Below the pieces are notes generated by a model, which saw only the letters and a list, made by a program, of their open reading frames with translations, made no database searches and was not told the DNA's origin. A DNA stretch of 64,000 nucleotides from Escherichia phage B9-1. Numbering within the stretch: position 1 is the first letter of the stretch; every line of letters begins with the position of its first letter. Location: the sequence record OQ420740.1. The stretch is one strand, 5' to 3'. The position numbers were made by a program, and so were the translations under genes. Positions 39,323 through 51,657 of the stretch are shown here, one piece after another.

Positions 39323-39664
39323 ATGACTACTATGACCGCCGCAGAAAAAGCTATTCAGGTTGCCGCACTGAAAAAACAGATCGCAGACCTTGAGAACAAG
39401 ATCGATAACTTTGAAATCGACGAGGACAAGTACGACGAAAACTATGATGAATGGTTAGACGAGGTCTACGGCGAAATCATGATCGGAAACATTTCTTTTC
39501 TTCCGTCGCGTATCCTCAAGGAGCTAGATCCTATCGCTTACCGCTGCGGATTTAGCGACTACATCGACAGCCTGGATATTGAGGACGATGAAGAGTACCA
39601 AGAATTGCAAACAGAGTTGGAAGAAGCAAAAGAAGAGCTTGCAGAACTGGAAGAAAACGAGTAA
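39323..39664 (+). CDS. Highly acidic coiled-coil-like protein (113 aa)
   Basis: Track ORF; RBS AAGGAGA; D/E-rich, e.g. DEDKYDENYDEWLDE and DIEDDEEYQELQTELEEAKEELAELEENE. Confidence 0.6.
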   Translation: MTTMTAAEKAIQVAALKKQIADLENKIDNFEIDEDKYDENYDEWLDEVYGEIMIGNISFLPSRILKELDPIAYRCGFSDYIDSLDIEDDEEYQELQTELEEAKEELAELEENE

Positions 39665-39750: not shown

Positions 39751-39996
39751 ATGGCAGCACTAATCACCAAATACTATGCCCCTACCAACACCAAAAGCGC
39801 CCGGATCATGGTAAAAGGCTTCGGACGTAAAAAGGTTTACACCTGGGATTATTCCCTAGACATGGAAGACAACTACACCAACGCGATGACCGATTTTATT
39901 AACGAGCTGAATACGCGGATCTTAACAAATTATAAAATTACCGACATTGCTTATATAGGTGAAGGCGGGATCTGTTTTGTAGGCATTGTGAAATAG
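39751..39996 (+). CDS. Hypothetical protein (81 aa)
   Basis: Track ORF; RBS GAGGAG. Confidence 0.55.
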   Translation: MAALITKYYAPTNTKSARIMVKGFGRKKVYTWDYSLDMEDNYTNAMTDFINELNTRILTNYKITDIAYIGEGGICFVGIVK

Positions 39997-45991: not shown

Positions 45992-46051
45992 TCCTTAAAT
46001 ACTATAAAGCAGGGCTTGCAACGGTCCTGTTTTTTGTTACACTTGTTTCAC

Positions 46052-46100
46052 GGGTGGCACCTGGCGACGGGGGGAGACAATCACCGGGCCTGCCTGTCAT
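46052..46100 (-). repeat. Inverted copy of the GC-rich element found at 37283-37490
   Basis: Reverse complement ATGACAGGCAGGCCCGGTGATTGTCTCCCCCCGTCGCCAGGTGCC aligns closely with 37436-37490. Confidence 0.6.
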
Positions 46101-46119
46101 ATAAAAACTATAAAAACCG

Positions 46120-46173
46120 TTGACACCTGCCAGGCGGTGGGGTAACATTTATCTTGAAGGGGCAAAAGTGCCC
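46120..46173 (+). promoter_or_regulatory. sigma70-type promoter plus leader hairpin
   Basis: -35 TTGACA 46120-46125, 17-bp spacer, -10 TAACAT 46143-46148; hairpin GGGGCAAAAGTGCCC 46159-46173 then ACACAACAACC. Confidence 0.5.
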
Positions 46174-46202
46174 ACACAACAACCAGAAGAGAGGAAAACG
46201 CC

Positions 46203-46475
46203 ATGTTAGGCTGGATTAACCAAGAAGTCGAATCACGTTTTAACGCTATTTGGGATCTCATCGAAAAAGAGGACGGAACATCAAGCCCTTATCTCAATAA
46301 TCTTGAATTCCATTTCGTGGAAGCGATGAACGCAGAACATGATCACGAAGGTGGTGCGGACGAGTTCGCTAAAGGGTATGGCTTCAACAATGCCAACGAA
46401 ATGATCGAGGCGGTTGTACTCCAGGCTGAGGAAGATTATCAATTAAAAACGCTTGAATTCTGCCGCCGTAAGTAA
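46203..46475 (+). CDS. Hypothetical protein (90 aa)
   Basis: Track ORF; RBS AGAGAGGA. Confidence 0.6.
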   Translation: MLGWINQEVESRFNAIWDLIEKEDGTSSPYLNNLEFHFVEAMNAEHDHEGGADEFAKGYGFNNANEMIEAVVLQAEEDYQLKTLEFCRRK

Positions 46476-46537
46476 TAAGATAATGACACGGGCCAAAAGG
46501 CCCACTAAACCAGGACCACATAAAGAGGAAAAACATC

Positions 46538-46801
46538 ATGAAACGTCTGGATCAGCTCAAACTAGTTCAGTACATGGCTTACAAAATTCTTGAAGTCCAA
46601 AAAGGTAGCAAAAAAGAAGTTTGCGAGAAAGCTTACAAGATCTTTACTCGCAAAAAAGACGATTGGATGTTACGCCAGACTAAAAAGGCTGATATCTTGG
46701 GGTGCCTGGAAGAAGAGATCCGGCTTGAAGAACAAGAAGAGATCCGCCGTAGTGAGGCAGATTATCAGGCAGCTTGGGAAAACTGGATGAGCAACAAATA
46801 A
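46538..46801 (+). CDS. Hypothetical basic protein (87 aa)
   Basis: Track ORF; RBS AAGAGGA; preceded by hairpin GGGCCAAAAGGCCC 46490-46503. Confidence 0.6.
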   Translation: MKRLDQLKLVQYMAYKILEVQKGSKKEVCEKAYKIFTRKKDDWMLRQTKKADILGCLEEEIRLEEQEEIRRSEADYQAAWENWMSNK

Positions 46802-46867
46802 TACAACAAGCTACATGGTCAGGGGCAATAAAGCCCCTTGATCACATAAAAATTATGCTATCCTTGG

Positions 46868-46896
46868 TTGACAGGGATCGGCAGTTTTGCTATATT
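46868..46896 (+). promoter_or_regulatory. sigma70-type promoter
   Basis: -35 TTGACA 46868-46873, 17-bp spacer, -10 TATATT 46891-46896. Confidence 0.6.
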
Positions 46897-46945
46897 CTTT
46901 TTTGAAGGGAAGTTGTAAGAAAATTAACTAAGAGGTAAAAACACC

Positions 46946-47365
46946 ATGAACATTAAATCTGATAATCCGGCATATAGCTTTGATAACGCTTTTTGTCACG
47001 GTCCGGCGGCGAAAGGATTCGAAATCGATGGTAAACTAGTTATTGTTAATGTTGACGGGGAAGAGGTTGCAGTATATCCGGTGGCAGACGTTAAAAGCCG
47101 TCTACAATGCCGCATGGATGTTACCGCCTACCAGCTTGATCCGGTCCGGGTAGTTGCCCTAGTCCTGGAAGAAGAAATTAAAGCAATGCACCACAGCAAC
47201 AAGTTTATTGGTGACGCTCAAGATAATATGCAGGTATGCCGCCATAAAGTTAATGAAGTACTTAAAGAGTACGGCTATAAGGATTTAATGATCAAGCGTG
47301 ATGAAAAATTCCGTTACCGTAACGACCTGGCAAATCGGATTTTTGAAATATACGAATCATTATAA
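46946..47365 (+). CDS. Hypothetical protein (139 aa)
   Basis: Track ORF; RBS AAGAGG; last gene of rightward island. Confidence 0.65.
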   Translation: MNIKSDNPAYSFDNAFCHGPAAKGFEIDGKLVIVNVDGEEVAVYPVADVKSRLQCRMDVTAYQLDPVRVVALVLEEEIKAMHHSNKFIGDAQDNMQVCRHKVNEVLKEYGYKDLMIKRDEKFRYRNDLANRIFEIYESL

Positions 47366-47384
47366 TTTCTTAACTGAATTATCA

Positions 47385-47410
47385 AGGGGCTTAAAGGCCC
47401 CTTTCTTTTT
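47385..47410 (+). terminator. Intrinsic terminator
   Basis: AGGGG-cttaaagg-CCCCT then TTCTTTTT. Confidence 0.7.
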
Positions 47411-47412
47411 GT

Positions 47413-49819
47413 CTGCTCTTCTCCTACCATAAACGGCCCTACCTGGCAAGTGGAATAATTGACTAGCCATCAATCCCACACACTGTACAAATATACATAT
47501 AAAATAACTATTGCATAATCTTTCACTGTGTGGTAGCAGGGCCATTTTTACCCGTTTTCTCTCCCAAAAGTGCACGTAATGCCGCTATTGCACAAATTTT
47601 AACCTGATGCACATCTCCAATATCTTGTCAACAACTAAAAATCTTTATAAGTCATACACTTACACAACATAGAAAGCGTGTCCTACGCGAAAAATCGAGT
47701 ATAACTATAGCCGCCAGATCTCAGAATTCACGTACGAACACCATTCTATAGTCTGCAAAGTATTTATTCCAACCACAGAATAACGGAATAGTCAATACCT
47801 GCATAAAATAATTATTCGTGTAAACTGCATAACATAAATCAGCTCAGGTGTCAACATTTTTCGTAAACAGTCCGAAATTATCACGATGAGTTATCATAAA
47901 CAGAGAAATCTTTAGTCGTCTAATGTTTACTGTACATTACTATACTGACTGGAATCATTAGATGACTAAGAGAAAGATAAGAAATAATTAATAATGTAAT
48001 TGTTTTACCTGTAACAATAAGGCAACTATGCAAACGAATGGCATGGCGCGACGGAGTCGCGACATAATATAAAAGCAGTAACAATCACCCCCGTGATAGT
48101 TTTTCTGCAATCTATTACTCAGATCATAGTTGCCTTGTATTTAGTTAATCATGACATAACAAGCAAGGCAACTATAGATCTTCTAATAGTTGCCCTGCTT
48201 TTATATTATGTCATAGATTGTTAGCTTGTTAATTGTTTTCATGCAAACGAATGGCATGGCTTATCATCTCTGTGTAAACTGTTCAGGCGTAAACAGTCTA
48301 TGCGTAAACAGTGAGATATGGAATAGTAACAGCCGTTATTGTGTCATATTGTGTGACATTGTGTCCGGTGTCTGGTGTCCAGTGTGTCAGACAAGTTTTT
48401 CTCCTCTTTGTCAAGTGCTGCATGAAAAATTTACAAACTGGTATGGTAGCATTTTTGCGGCCCTGTTTACATTCAGGAATGTATGTATAATCCTTGTTGT
48501 GTGGGCGTTTAGACGTCTGGACGGTCAGAAGTCTGCAGGTCAATATCTAATCTATTGGTTGCTAACTATATCCCACACAAATAGTAAGAAATATAATTGT
48601 TATATGCGTAAACAGTAACCCATGTTATCAATCCCTGCATGTATCGCCAGTGGTGCGCATAATGGGTATTATGTTAAATTGCCCGTAATGATAACCATTC
48701 TCACAATGATAGGTATTCTCATTCACTCCCACAAGATAGATTGCAAATGTTGTGCCACTGTGTGAACGGCCTGGCCTATTAATTTGCCTCACTGCCTCGA
48801 TATTTGAGAATTATTATAAAAATGAGAAGTATTCCCATTCCGTCCGCCTGGCAGCACTCCTGTAGGACAGGCACAAAATCGGGGTATAACTGGACCTGTT
48901 CAGATATTTCTGGCTGACTCTTCAGGCCTGTGTGGGAAAAGCCAACCTCTCCGGCGGCGGGGAGGGGTCAATTAAAAAATTTACGTGGTGTATGAAGCGC
49001 TCTTCAGGTAAGGCAGGTATTATGGGATGAAACCCTCTTCAGATGATGATATTTGTGGGTGTGATATTTGCTGGAAAGCCAGATATGACGGGACTCCCGG
49101 CAGGGGTGGGGTAGTACAGACAGGGAAAATGTGGGAATGTGATGGAGTAAATTGATCAGGTAGGTAGGATATGGAATATGTTACAAGTATGTTAAATATG
49201 GAGGTAGGATATTTGTAAGATTTGTGTGTAAAATCAAATACTTAAGTGGTGTTGTGGTATTTTCTATAAATAATTCAAGTTTAATAGGTGATATTTGTCT
49301 CCATCCACTTTGTGTGGTAAACAGATTCTAATTGAATTGGTTTACAAGTGTATATAAAGTATACAAATTAAAGATATAAGAAACCCCCCTCCCCCTTCGG
49401 CTACCATTCACCTTTTCCTCTGACTGGTACTTAAACACTTATTCAGACTCTTCAGGTTATCACCCATATACTATATGGCAGTGACTGGTGTCCTCCGGCC
49501 CCTCTTTCGTCACCCGTCCGCTTCGCCATGCTAATGCCATAGCCAAATGTTCGGTTGTTCACCCTGTTCACTCAGGTGTATCTCCATACCCCTTCAAACC
49601 GAAGAGAACAGAAAACCCGAATTACTCGGTAAAAGAAAAGAGAAGAACTTAATTTTATCAAGATAGGCAAGAATGTCAAGGGATGACTGCTCACTAAACA
49701 AGCAAACAGTCATGTGTGGTGGGTAAGTAACTGTGTTGGTAGGAAATTTAGTTGAAAGATGTTATAGGTGCCTCCAGAACCTTAGCTGGGCAGCTAAACC
49801 TGCAAAGCAGACTTGTGTG
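47413..49819. other. 2.4-kb non-coding, repeat-dense region between convergent gene blocks
   Basis: No convincing ORF; CGTAAACAGT x4, ATGCAAACGAATGGCATGGC x2, AAGGCAACTAT x4 in alternating orientation, palindrome GTCGCGAC, CTCTTCAGG x4. Confidence 0.7.
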
Positions 49820-50101
49820 TCAGTCCAAAGGTTCATCTACTACTTCACTGAAATCAATGGTCAGAGTCTCTTCCCAACCATCAATCTCAGCACCGGAGTA
49901 GAGATCTTTAGGGTCTACATCAAGGGCTTCCGCAACAGCATCTATATTTAACACCTCTGGCAGGTATGATTCATCAAATTCAAGGTAAATCAGGCCACGA
50001 GTGTTGTCAGCCCCACCAAATATTTCTATTTTCATGAAATCTCCTCTGGAAATGAGAGTGTGAACGGGGTTTATACGTTCCAATACGATGGAATTATGCA
50101 C
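49820..50101 (-). CDS. Hypothetical protein (93 aa)
   Basis: Track ORF; last gene of leftward block. Confidence 0.55.
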   Translation of the reverse strand: MHNSIVLERINPVHTLISRGDFMKIEIFGGADNTRGLIYLEFDESYLPEVLNIDAVAEALDVDPKDLYSGAEIDGWEETLTIDFSEVVDEPLD

Positions 50102-50155
50102 GTTTGCCTCTTCAGGCCATGCTTTAGCATGATAAACTTATGTGGGCTCGGTGCT

Positions 50156-50341
50156 TCATAGTCTCCCACCTCTGAACTCTTCGTGCTCAGGCATAATAGA
50201 GAACCAGATGGCTATGATATCTTCCCACGTTAGGTCATCAGCCTCAGGATCCACCTGGGACGGAGATAGAGAATCCTCAGAATTGAAGTTTTCCTCTGTC
50301 ACCCCTTCAGATGTCTCTTTAGATGCATGTGTGTTGGTCAT
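50156..50341 (-). CDS. Small acidic protein (61 aa)
   Basis: Track ORF; D/E-rich. Confidence 0.45.
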   Translation of the reverse strand: MTNTHASKETSEGVTEENFNSEDSLSPSQVDPEADDLTWEDIIAIWFSIMPEHEEFRGGRL

Positions 50342-50662
50342 GTTCCACCCGTGAGTATTCCGGCAACATGTTTAAAAATAAGACTTTATCGACATATGGC
50401 TGGAACGTGTCGATGCTATAAGCATATTTCAGGAGCGGTAATGTGTCAACAGAAGCGCCGCGAGGGTTTGGTTAAAATCCGAGCGTATGGTGATTTGGGT
50501 CAAAACGGACGTGCGTTCTCGCTACGCTCGAAATAGAGAGTTGCTTGTAAGCCGCCCTTAAACGCTCTGTAATGAGATTAACTGCTTAAGGTATGGAATC
50601 GTTCACCGGATAAAGAAAAGGACGCCACAGAGCGTCCTATGTGCCTTAAATTTGATACTTTG

Positions 50663-50974
50663 CTATACCCATGAAGGCTTGTCTAGGTTTGAGTAACTAA
50701 AAGGTGTCAAAAGGTGACTGTCAAAATCTTTCAAACTCTCCAGATCTTTTTCCTCGTCTTGACACCATCTGTGCCTACATTTATTGTTGTAGTGCATGGA
50801 GTGCATAGCGTTCTGCAACTTAACAGGTACAAGGGATTCAGGAGTAGATAGAATTGTTGGGTATGCCAGGACTATCTCAAACAATGGAAACACATCGAAA
50901 CTGAAGTCTATTTCTGCTGAGGTTGCTGGCATATAGGAGTATTTAGCTGTCGTTGTAGACATAATCCACCTCAC
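50663..50974 (-). CDS. Hypothetical protein (103 aa)
   Basis: Track ORF; overlaps upstream stop. Confidence 0.55.
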   Translation of the reverse strand: MRWIMSTTTAKYSYMPATSAEIDFSFDVFPLFEIVLAYPTILSTPESLVPVKLQNAMHSMHYNNKCRHRWCQDEEKDLESLKDFDSHLLTPFSYSNLDKPSWV

Positions 50975-51297
50975 ACAGGCTTGATAATACCTTCACCGAA
51001 TAACTCTTCATATTTAATCTTATCAGGATCCCACTCTTGGATAATTTCGAAGACAATGTCCAGCCCGGGGATAATCACTTCTCCAGTATCAAGTCTGGCA
51101 AGAACAAAACCGGAAGGTTGAATGGTTTCCCAGTTGCGACGATTAGAATAGAGAACTTCGAAAATATCACCAACCGCAATCTGCTGATCAAGGTGCTCAA
51201 GATTCTCTTTCATATAAACGCAGCGTATTTTCCGTGCAGGCCACAGGCCCCCTACATCACGTTCATTTAGCTCTTTTACAGTAATCGGCATTAGCAT
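50971..51297 (-). CDS. Hypothetical protein (108 aa)
   Basis: Track ORF. Confidence 0.55.
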   Translation of the reverse strand: MLMPITVKELNERDVGGLWPARKIRCVYMKENLEHLDQQIAVGDIFEVLYSNRRNWETIQPSGFVLARLDTGEVIIPGLDIVFEIIQEWDPDKIKYEELFGEGIIKPV

Positions 51298-51351
51298 CTC
51301 TGATCTCCTTCATAGATAGTAAAAAGAGGGGCTTTGAGCCCCTCTTTGTCA

Positions 51352-51657
51352 TTATTCTACAGAGCGTTTGAACAGAATGTCTGCTTCAGACATGTGCTCA
51401 ACCTCCTCTTCGATTTTAGCTCGACGTTTTTCAGCTTCGTAGCGGATATCGAACTCGGTAGCCACCAATGACTTGATAAACTTAGGAGAATACAAGTGAT
51501 CCTGTTTCTCGACAAGAATAATATCCTTGATAGCGTCTTTCAGATCTTTAATCTGAAGCTGAAGTTCCACCAGCTCTTCAATTGTTTTACGGAGGCGATC
51601 ACGCTCTGCAATGTCAGAAGGAAGAGAGGTGAACAGTTCAACTTTAGATTTAGCCAT
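51352..51657 (-). CDS. Hypothetical coiled-coil protein (101 aa)
   Basis: Track ORF; charged heptad-like sequence. Confidence 0.55.
   Translation of the reverse strand: MAKSKVELFTSLPSDIAERDRLRKTIEELVELQLQIKDLKDAIKDIILVEKQDHLYSPKFIKSLVATEFDIRYEAEKRRAKIEEEVEHMSEADILFKRSVE

Follow-up and report, generated by a model that had tools for sequence, protein, structure and literature searches.

The non-coding region between the convergent gene blocks of Escherichia phage B9-1 as a probable concatemer junction with a 459-bp direct terminal repeat

According to a 2026 review, the way in which terminases produce exact terminal repeats has been clarified less fully than cos or headful packaging. For T7, a hairpin on the concatemers has been cited in support of a duplication model. 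In the T7 sequence, an inverted repeat (39568–39608) lies 170 bp ahead of the terminal repeat, and short repeat arrays (CCTAAAG) are located between the two as well as within the terminal repeat. In T5, the injection-stop region is a non-coding stretch near the genome end, which is rich in repeats and palindromes, and the long terminal repeat carries pre-early genes. The length of the T5 repeat is about 10 kb.

Termini were also mapped in Vequintavirinae. The 459-bp terminal repeats of phage Gotham were established because read coverage was doubled there and packaging had a fixed start, and Korf et al. reported a terminal redundancy of 458 bp for EdH4 and HdK5. The phAPEC8-like phage Schickermooser has a 328-bp repeat. 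In Klebsiella phage KPP-1 (Mydovirus), coverage and PhageTerm located a direct terminal repeat (DTR) of 514 bp, which was assigned to the T7 type. For rV5, host-type promoters only (sigma-70-type) and a T4-late-like motif were described, but no phage RNA polymerase.

The phage studied here, Escherichia phage B9-1 (OQ420740.1), is an rV5-like Vequintavirus, a myovirus with a genome of 136 kb, of which a window of 64 kb was analyzed. A first-pass annotation had drawn attention to a repeat-dense stretch at 47413–49819 and had proposed a replication origin, a packaging site or genome terminus, an injection-stop-like region, or non-coding RNAs. The coordinates and sequences of this region were confirmed as described.

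Gene flanks and non-coding status of the region

The plus-strand gene block ends at 47365 and the minus-strand gene block at 49820. The following features were assigned in and next to the region:

47384–47403, plus strand: intrinsic terminator (8-bp stem with five G–C pairs, 4-nt loop, T-run), which closes the plus-strand block
47413–48011, unstranded: spacer by the predicted right genome end, AT-rich (33–39% GC), identity 0.925 vs. 0.89–0.91 at third codon positions, near-neutral conservation
48012–48215, unstranded: nearly invariant inverted-repeat cluster, recognized by pairwise identity (0.986) and fold
48216–48389, plus strand: hypervariable repeat arrays from the hairpin to the left cut, identity 0.758, many indels
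48389/48390, unstranded: predicted left end cut, TGTCA/GACAAG (the slash marks the cut), from the alignment to the Gotham termini and from record borders
48390–48848, unstranded: predicted DTR of 459 bp, present here as a single copy, which matches a concatemer or an assembly with collapsed repeats
48848/48849, unstranded: predicted right end cut, CCGTCCGCC/TGGCAGC (GTCCGCC/TGGCAGC), from the same two sources
48849–48895, unstranded: hypervariable patch outside the right cut, identity 0.79
48896–49395, unstranded: spacer by the predicted left genome end, G/T-rich on the plus strand, identity 0.925
49396–49795, unstranded: strongly conserved non-coding block, identity 0.980
49652–49679, minus strand: sigma-70 promoter-like site, TTGACA-16 nt-TG-n-TAAAAT (11 of 12 matches, extended −10 TG), pointing toward the DTR

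Terminators are annotated at the same place as 47384–47403 in the record of phage Alma. The earlier claim that the region is non-coding was borne out by ORF breakage in relatives, a lack of family matches, and empty gene calls. The big internal ORFs (130, 81, 72, 71, and 54 amino acids) are intact in just one to four of 15 related genomes, and five internal ORFs tested (39–129 amino acids) gave no match in PHROGs and Pfam, whereas both flanking genes matched PHROG families. An independent gene caller applied to five contigs placed no genes in the region, which is also free of genes in the careful annotations of rV5, LL12, and the BASEL phages. A tRNA scan found none. Distant-mode blastn with the region returned Vequintavirus records only, which provides no DNA-level bridge to other genera, and the flanking 139-amino-acid protein has only three close loci among the IMG/VR relatives. 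Of the 121 related GenBank records, the majority have an arbitrary opening point, and in several the region is occupied by invented small genes.

It is highly improbable that the region harbors clustered genes for very small proteins that have escaped annotation. Some records annotate 12 to 16 tiny ORFs here, and three ORFs of 39–54 amino acids are intact in 15 of 15 genomes; however, this intactness is uninformative because the three lie within a 98%-identical block. They display few substitutions with no third-position bias, and only one of them is preceded by even a weak Shine–Dalgarno motif. The lack of PHROG and Pfam family matches and the disruption of the larger ORFs in most relatives also argue against such genes.

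Predicted genome ends and repeats at the cut sites

Both 459-bp termini of Gotham align to 48390–48848 with exact borders. In five records (Gotham, ECP2309, HdK5, EdH4, and YN3), this segment is located at position 1 and is present in a second copy, which was checked for Gotham and lies at the opposite end of the record. One DTR border coincides exactly with the start or end of four further records (Pr121LW, ECP2303, bov10K2, and bov22_2), which gives nine GenBank records from several separate submissions with a start or end at either border. A search of public assemblies for contigs ending at the borders yielded one short Logan contig, whose end inside the DTR is uninformative. The DTR (identity 0.949) is more conserved than third codon positions (0.89–0.91) and is flanked by approximately 975 bp of non-coding DNA per side. 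From relatives with mapped ends that are 96–99% identical, we infer that the virion DNA starts at 48390 and ends at 48848. With these ends, the two convergent gene blocks would run toward the physical ends. Because the mapped termini of the relatives fall exactly in the region, it most likely is the site at which fixed-end genomes of the T7 type are joined in concatemers.

The correspondence extends to KPP-1, whose DTR aligned with that of the window in reverse orientation with both borders within 1 nt. Both DTRs share the motifs TTGTCAAG-N11-AAATTTACAA and GTCCGYCTRGCA at the two ends, and on these alignments the conservation of both putative cut sites extends to a second genus. A search of KPP-1 with four block profiles (nhmmer) gave weak matches only (E 0.01–0.8), which were collinear on the minus strand; this orientation was confirmed by the direct alignment. 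Large contigs matched in a motif-pattern scan of IMG/VR were Vequintavirus and Mydovirus-like only, with no third genus.

By homology to Gotham, to the GenBank records, and to KPP-1, the genome would have unique, sequence-defined ends with the same segment at both. The alternative of a circularly permuted headful genome, in which the region is merely a pac site or a termination zone between convergent operons with no fixed ends, appears quite improbable. It is in line with the description of rV5 as circularly permuted, with the published PhageTerm calls for bov10K2 and BpE1AUH, which conflict with fixed ends and indicate circular permutation, and with the presence of terminator-like hairpins and C-rich spacers. 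However, the statement on rV5 was based on 3.6-fold Sanger coverage, and a later version of the bov10K2 record itself begins or ends at a border. The 459-bp segment at position 1 with a second copy in five records, the four further records that begin or end at a border, and the doubled-coverage block with exact borders reported in two genera are not expected for permuted ends without a fixed right end; what was found are exact borders common to independent records and to two genera. The terminus or packaging function, one of the options of the first-pass annotation, is supported by the mapped 459-bp DTR of the relatives, which corresponds to 48390–48848 and would set precise borders at 48390 and 48848. 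For an origin, an injection-stop region, or non-coding RNAs, no positive evidence was obtained. Since the termini have already been mapped in close relatives, the region is largely ordinary.

The repeats that had been listed for 47413–49819 are real and restricted to the region. Throughout the 64-kb window, CGTAAACAGT occurs only four times, at 47862, 48288, 48303, and 48607 (binomial p = 2e-6). Although such p-values were calculated post hoc, the enrichment is large. The exact 20-mer was retrieved at 48028 and 48241 (48241–48260), the palindrome GTCGCGAC at 48056, and the arms with their reverse complement as 18 nt (48061–48078/48195–48212) with 100% complementarity. All four GGCAACTAT sites (48021, 48126, 48167, and 48186) lie inside the region in the alternating orientation described, the last pair forming an inverted repeat 10 bp apart; the fourth full 11-mer contains one mismatch. 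Of the four copies claimed for CTCTTCAGG, only three are exact (48918, 49000, and 49448), and the one at 49035 is reduced to the 8-mer CTCTTCAG. The listed repeats do not form one system but comprise a hairpin element, two phased arrays beside the cut site, and scattered motifs.

The two arrays occupy the segment between the hairpin and the left cut, which also includes the conserved second 20-mer copy (48241–48260). GTAAACA-type units recur every 15–16 bp (48274–48312). TGTCA-type units recur every 9–11 bp (35 of 57 spacings), and the array ends at the left cut, with the last copy always ending at the cut. Among the 15 genomes compared, the copy number ranges from one to eight for the GTAAACA type and from two to seven for the TGTCA type. 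Copies of the array units are found within the DTR, too (48409, 48463, and 48607). In the relatives, GCACTCC(T/A)GT... units occur once or twice in the patch at 48849–48895, along with small inserted hairpins. The only fast-evolving, indel-rich spots are those adjoining the two cuts.

Iteron-like GTAAACAGT repeats, together with the AT-rich stretch 47600–48010 and the inverted-repeat cluster, might also indicate a replication origin, which would be compatible with a terminus function but which we regard as unlikely. Repeated 9–11-mers are absent elsewhere in the window, and a stretch with 33% GC adjoins the strongly conserved inverted-repeat cluster. The cumulative GC skew turns in the region and a skew change was seen there by the authors of the rV5 study, but this change falls where the direction of transcription switches, a point made by these authors themselves. 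The region contains no DnaA boxes, and no initiator gene was identified nearby. Conservation is lowest in the iteron-like arrays, and their copy number varies between one and eight, which is unusual for an essential origin; their position and phasing follow the cut site.

The nested hairpin, the spacers, and the conserved block

The inverted-repeat cluster (identity 0.986) exceeds third codon positions (0.89–0.91) in conservation. Its perfect 18-nt arms close a nested hairpin of 150 nt, whose inner stems are the four GGCAACTAT sites. Just upstream of it are a small hairpin (GCGAC-GGA-GTCGC) and the first of the two 20-mer copies (48028). The DNA fold of the nested hairpin reaches −52 kcal/mol (z = −8.75) and is alike on both strands; its distance to the left cut is 178 bp. 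Variation among relatives occurs in the loops; in rV5 and LL12, for example, 33 nt are inserted in a loop. The sliding RNA-fold scan detected no comparable structure on the other side of the DTR and, except for isolated windows, no excess folding beyond the cluster. The KPP-1 hairpin (fold z = −9.5) lies on the same side of the DTR as in the window. Because the hairpin stems are invariant in Vequintavirus, they are uninformative on pairing, either way. For the Mydovirus hairpin, the alignment of only four sequences, all of this other genus, revealed seven compensatory double changes in 65 pairs, no one-sided changes, and no wobble changes; the covariation score was reached by none of 500 shuffles. 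The complementarity of an inverted repeat can also be maintained by template switching rather than selection. The inner hairpin at 48161–48200, followed by TTTTATATT, has the look of a plain terminator, too.

The strong folding at 48020–48260 and the compensatory changes in the Mydovirus counterpart could also point to a non-coding RNA, either the 150-nt nested hairpin itself or an RNA of approximately 260 nt starting from the minus-strand promoter 49679→49652. For the latter, the near-consensus, invariant promoter and the 98% conservation downstream of it are favorable. We nevertheless consider a function as non-coding RNA doubtful, with a low probability. No match at E ≤ 1 was found in the region when 46000–51500 was scanned against Rfam (Rfam 15), and the 260-nt candidate is only marginally better folded than shuffled sequences (z = −1.78). 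No good promoter feeds the hairpin, and promoter-like sites are not enriched. The hairpin folds equally on both strands, and the covarying pairs are all Watson–Crick pairs with no G–U intermediates; complementarity at the DNA level therefore fits the hairpin better than RNA.

The two spacers resemble each other in the sense of the incoming transcripts. The predicted plus-strand RNA of 47413–48011 is C-rich, G-poor, and unstructured (folding z ≥ 0), with a C/G ratio of 1.4–2.7 over 47360–47840 versus a background 95th percentile of 1.33. The G/T-rich tract noticed earlier was verified on the plus strand of 48896–49395, so a minus-strand RNA would be rich in C, poor in G, and nearly free of structure. 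Here, the minus-sense C/G ratio is 1.7–8.0 over 48960–49360, and the minimum free energy is −1 to −4 kcal/mol per 120 nt. This spacer contains CTCTTCAG(G) at 48918, 49000, and 49035, two copies of GGTAGGATAT (49163 and 49203), and GGGGAGGGG; the fourth CTCTTCAG(G) copy (49448) is located in the conserved block. At a secondary level, the composition would support Rho-type termination zones on both sides of the DTR here and on one side only in KPP-1.

The adjacent block (49396–49795), with its identity of 0.980, likewise exceeds third codon positions in conservation, and only nine columns are variable over 49382–49660. The block displays no excess folding (z −1 to −2) and no coding signature: it gave no PHROG or Pfam matches, and its only ORF preceded by a Shine–Dalgarno motif lacks codon-position bias. 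Both hexamers of the promoter-like site are invariant in 15 genomes. A sigma-70 scan counted 17 promoter-like sites versus 11.4 ± 3.4 expected, which is no enrichment. The motif TTGTCAAG-N11-AAATTTACAA conserved in the DTR was also considered as a promoter, but read directly it fits on neither strand. A search of the literature on vequintavirus transcriptomics retrieved nothing relevant.

Proposed junction and comparison with known systems

We propose that fixed-end, T7-type genomes with the 459-bp DTR at both packaged ends are joined in this region within concatemers, and assign a probability of roughly 0.8 to this reading including the following mechanism. During replication, genomes would be joined head to tail via a single DTR copy. 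The terminase would recognize the junction by the helically phased TGTCA repeats (9–11 bp apart) ending at the cut, and probably by the GTAAACA array and the 20-mer sites as well, and would cut at TGTCA/GACAAG and GTCCGCC/TGGCAGC. Duplication of the DTR would allow both daughter molecules to keep a copy. Located 178 bp away from the cut, the nested hairpin (48061–48212) is the strongest candidate to serve in a fold-back or structure-specific duplication step, a role as proposed for the hairpin beside the T7 terminal repeat. The spacers, C-rich in the sense of the incoming transcripts, and the terminator at 47384–47403 probably bar convergent transcription from the junction. For the hairpin, for the arrays, and for the C-rich spacers, the roles given here are inferred only.

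The nested hairpin offers a modest lead into terminal-repeat duplication. Quite tentatively, it might be a structure-specific DNA element across the Vequintavirinae, which primes or guides DTR duplication by fold-back or cruciform formation, with the nearly invariant 400-bp block and its outward-facing promoter as a further part. If true, this would provide a second genetically tractable system for exact terminal-repeat regeneration, in a myovirus relying on host RNA polymerase. The segment combines cut-site motifs of two genera, phased repeats ending at the cut, and a hairpin whose pairing is kept by compensatory change in the sister genus; in this lineage, the generation of terminal repeats might thereby be amenable to mutagenesis and plasmid-transduction tests on one short segment. 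Physical ends at 48390 and 48848 would also correct the coordinates, the annotation, and the genome length (one extra 459 bp).

Gotham, EdH4, and HdK5 share the DTR sequence and its borders with the window. The same locus in rV5 is the "non-coding" box (104013–106618 of DQ832317, 89% identity), which was described solely as ORF-less in a genome assumed to be circularly permuted, without a link to termini. KPP-1 resembles the window in its convergent blocks, the DTR in a gene-poor gap, the nested hairpin on the same side, the tandem repeats at the borders, and the homologous cut-site motifs. It differs in the gap, which is shorter on one side (about 330 bp vs. 970 bp in the window), in the C-rich spacer, which is present on one side only, and in the hairpin, which has an unlike sequence and lies 309 bp from the cut. 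A counterpart of the block 49396–49795 is absent in KPP-1.

T5 and the window both have a non-coding stretch rich in repeats and palindromes near the genome end, as would suit an injection-stop region, at which DNA entry pauses once a first segment is inside the cell. In contrast to the T5 repeat of about 10 kb, the DTR of the window is only 459 bp long and gene-free, so a first-step transfer would have nothing to express. A long terminal repeat with pre-early genes was not found in the window, no pre-early set lies between an end and the repeats, and both flanking blocks are transcribed toward the ends. Two-step transfer has not been reported for this phage group, and an injection-stop function is extremely unlikely.

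Compared with T7, a 40-kb podovirus, the window derives from a 136-kb myovirus, and there is no sequence similarity between the two. The 150-nt nested hairpin with its perfect 18-nt outer arms contrasts with the imperfect 19-nt stem of T7, and unlike in T7, non-coding stretches of approximately 1 kb flank the terminal repeat on either side in the window. The genes on both sides point to the ends, whereas the T7 genes run left to right. The pause of T7 polymerase at the junction has no obvious equivalent here, given the host-type promoters only in the rV5 paper; as no T7-like RNA polymerase was described for rV5, the need for transcription pausing may not carry over. Nevertheless, the direct terminal repeat is short and exact in T7 (160 bp) as well as in the window. 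In the window, short direct repeats are arrayed next to the terminal repeat and again within it, and an inverted repeat with hairpin potential lies on one side at a distance of less than approximately 200 bp. The order of inverted repeat, short repeats, and terminal repeat is thus alike in both phages, with a gap of 170 bp in T7 and 178 bp in the window.

A non-coding stretch between convergent gene blocks

The gene-free stretch at 47413–49819 matches 121 phage records with 86–97% identity, and all matches listed are Vequintavirus (rV5-like) coliphages, save 19 labelled as Campylobacter phages. The left boundary is formed by the stop of the plus-strand block (47365), followed by a terminator (47384–47403), and the right boundary by the stop of the minus-strand block (49820). 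The first-pass annotation had considered this region non-coding, which was borne out. Large ORFs within it are intact in just 1–4 of 15 relatives, its internal ORFs had no match in PHROGs and Pfam (both flanking genes do match PHROG families), an independent gene caller called no gene in the region on five contigs, and the sole ORF with an upstream Shine-Dalgarno motif in the conserved block at 49396–49795 lacks codon-position bias. No positive evidence for small genes in the region was obtained. In some records (NHEP1, Mangalyan, APCEc02), 12–16 ORFs of 30–60 aa are annotated here, among them a 135-nt ORF in APCEc02, adjacent to the terminal repeat and labelled "structural protein"; these annotations differ between records and are not conserved. 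The gene-free stretch was known before; its meaning was not on record.

Three observations concern the records and the surroundings. Alma and APCEc02 lack a counterpart of the last plus-strand gene (46946–47365, 139 aa, PHROG 12277), and their similarity to the window begins only past it, so that the gene content next to the terminus seems to vary between phages. Because the 19 Campylobacter phage records (e.g., MG065655, MG065647; host Campylobacter jejuni) are 87–94% identical to E. coli vequintaviruses here, they would appear to be mislabelled or contaminating coliphages. Outside the region, among small minus-strand genes, 51314–51407 (minus strand) weakly matches the Rfam sRNA family sraA over the full model length (37.7 bits, gathering score 56, E = 0.0027).

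Probable genome ends and direct terminal repeat

Sequence comparison marks the region as concatemer junction and terminal part of a fixed-end genome with a short direct terminal repeat (DTR). The record of the relative Gotham carries annotated 459-bp repeats at both ends, and when these ends are aligned to the window, the repeat, also 459 bp, runs from 48390 (GACAAGTTTTTC...) to 48848 (...CCGTCCGCC). In Gotham, ECP2309, HdK5, EdH4, and YN3, this segment lies at record position 1 and a second copy is present in the record (at the opposite end in Gotham, for which the location was checked), and the records of Pr121LW, ECP2303, bov10K2, and bov22_2 start or stop exactly on one DTR border. Korf et al. 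described 458 bp of terminal redundancy in EdH4 and HdK5 and, in a phAPEC8-like phage, a repeat of 328 bp. The Klebsiella phage KPP-1, which belongs to another genus (Mydovirus), has a 514-bp DTR mapped via coverage and PhageTerm (class T7-type), likewise situated where convergent blocks leave a gap with few genes. KPP-1 is oriented opposite to the window; the alignment of its reversed DTR is patchy but clear, and both mapped borders fall within 1 nt of those in the window (left, TGTCA|GACAAG vs. GCTAA|ACACAA in KPP-1; right, GTCCGCC|TGGCAGC vs. GTCCGTC|TAGCACC). Just within the left DTR end, both phages share TTGTCAAG-N11-AAATTTACAA.

The DTR therefore corresponds to the mapped ends of relatives, and both borders are conserved in two genera. 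Among the options of the first-pass annotation, the genome terminus or packaging site was thereby supported; for an origin, non-coding RNAs, or an injection-stop region, the analysis of the region yielded no positive evidence. A circularly permuted genome has been asserted in some papers, but this is outweighed because the DTR borders are exact and recurrent. Existing data on relatives account for most of this finding; the remaining interest lies in the hairpin described below and the block at 49396–49795.

The near-neutral baseline for conservation (identity 0.89–0.91) was taken from third codon positions in the genes on either side.

Conservation of the region (pairwise identity, alignment of 15 genomes)
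47413–48011, spacer, 0.925
48012–48215, inverted-repeat cluster, 0.986
48216–48389, left-cut flank, 0.758
48390–48848, DTR, 0.949
48849–48895, right-cut flank, 0.79
48896–49395, spacer, 0.925
49396–49795, block of strong constraint, 0.980

Relative to that baseline, both spacers are near neutral; constraint is evident in the DTR and strong in the inverted-repeat cluster and the block at 49396–49795. Fast-evolving, indel-rich DNA is limited to the two short flanks directly outside the cuts.

The I29 record (L011, 2538–4636, corresponding to window 48379–49893) has a tandem duplication across the right DTR border; the duplicated part, about 590 bp, corresponds to 48632–49167 and could be genuine at the junction or an artefact of assembling the terminal repeat. 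Inside the DTR, the perfect palindrome AGACGTCT is directly followed by GGACGGTC (48511–48526), which is kept in relatives and is reminiscent of two 8-bp boxes in tandem, as recognised by the MetJ repressor of E. coli.

A conserved hairpin and repeat arrays beside the left cut

All repeats listed previously are present at the positions given, but the fourth copy of AAGGCAACTAT has one mismatch and the fourth of CTCTTCAGG matches as an 8-mer only. All four copies of CGTAAACAGT and all four of GGCAACTAT in the 64-kb window fall inside the region. An extra exact CTCTTCAGG copy is located outside it at 50108, in a short intergenic gap past the first minus-strand gene.

The alternating GGCAACTAT sites and perfect 18-nt arms form the stems of a single nested fold (48061–48212), which as DNA reaches −52 kcal/mol (z = −8.75), equally on both strands. 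The stems are invariant within the genus and changes are confined to loops; in rV5 and LL12, the apical loop is extended by a 33-nt insertion. KPP-1 has a hairpin of the same design and unrelated sequence, located on the same DTR side; its perfect 21-nt arms are separated by 164 nt, with further hairpins nested inside (z = −9.5). In four Mydovirus sequences, compensatory double changes occurred in 7 of 65 pairs in four helices, and one-sided changes were absent; the covariation score was reached by none of 500 shuffles and collapsed in slid-register controls. The hairpin is thus conserved and covarying. Since the covariation is Watson–Crick-only and the fold strand-symmetric, a DNA-level structure fits better than RNA. 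With four sequences, the pairing could possibly reflect inverted-repeat homogenisation through template switching instead.

Two arrays occupy the left-cut flank. GTAAACA-type units recur every 15–16 bp in 1–8 copies per phage, and TGTCA-type units are spaced 9–11 bp apart in 35 of 57 intervals, the final copy invariably ending exactly on the left cut (48389/48390). The 20-mer ATGCAAACGAATGGCATGGC forms a conserved island in this variable flank. At 48216, between hairpin and 20-mer, most relatives (records L001, L005, L007, L008, L010, and others) contain an insertion of about 50 bp, absent from the window phage, whose three small hairpins are GC-rich (CACCCGAAGGGGTG, GGTGACCAAAGGTCACC, CTGGCATAGCCAG); other relatives have unrelated TTGTTAA-type repeats instead.

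Transcription around the junction and comparison with T7

The plus-strand unit runs into 47360–47840 (C/G 1.4–2.7 in its sense) and the minus-strand unit into 48960–49360 (C/G 1.7–8.0 in its sense; minimum free energy roughly between −1 and −4 kcal/mol for each 120 nt). In both cases, the sense RNA is rich in C, poor in G, and almost devoid of structure. The minus-strand stretch explains the previously noted "G/T-rich tract". This composition suggests that Rho-dependent termination may insulate the junction from transcription, which we infer rather than conclude because KPP-1 has a C-rich stretch on one side only. A near-consensus sigma-70 promoter-like site (49679→49652), invariant in 15 of 15 genomes, is aimed at the DTR; conservation reaches 98% over the 260 nt downstream, although these fold only marginally better than shuffles (z = −1.78). 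GGGGAGGGG (48959) and its exact complement (49386), about 420 nt apart, occur nowhere else in the window; in KPP-1, similar runs of G or C (record L017, 3167–3190) lie about as far from the DTR border.

In the proposed mechanism, the spacers would stop transcription, the arrays would be the recognition sites of the terminase, and the hairpin would take part in the duplication of the terminal repeat. For T7, a concatemer hairpin is cited in support of one model of repeat duplication. The terminal repeat of T7 begins at 39778; our own check of the T7 sequence revealed an imperfect inverted repeat (39568–39608) 170 bp ahead of it, and CCTAAAG-type short repeats that occupy the gap and extend into the terminal repeat. 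The inverted repeat agrees with the mapped hairpin turn-around of T7 near 39,587. The window, with hairpin, 178 bp of arrays, and repeat, has the same order as T7 and nearly equal spacing.
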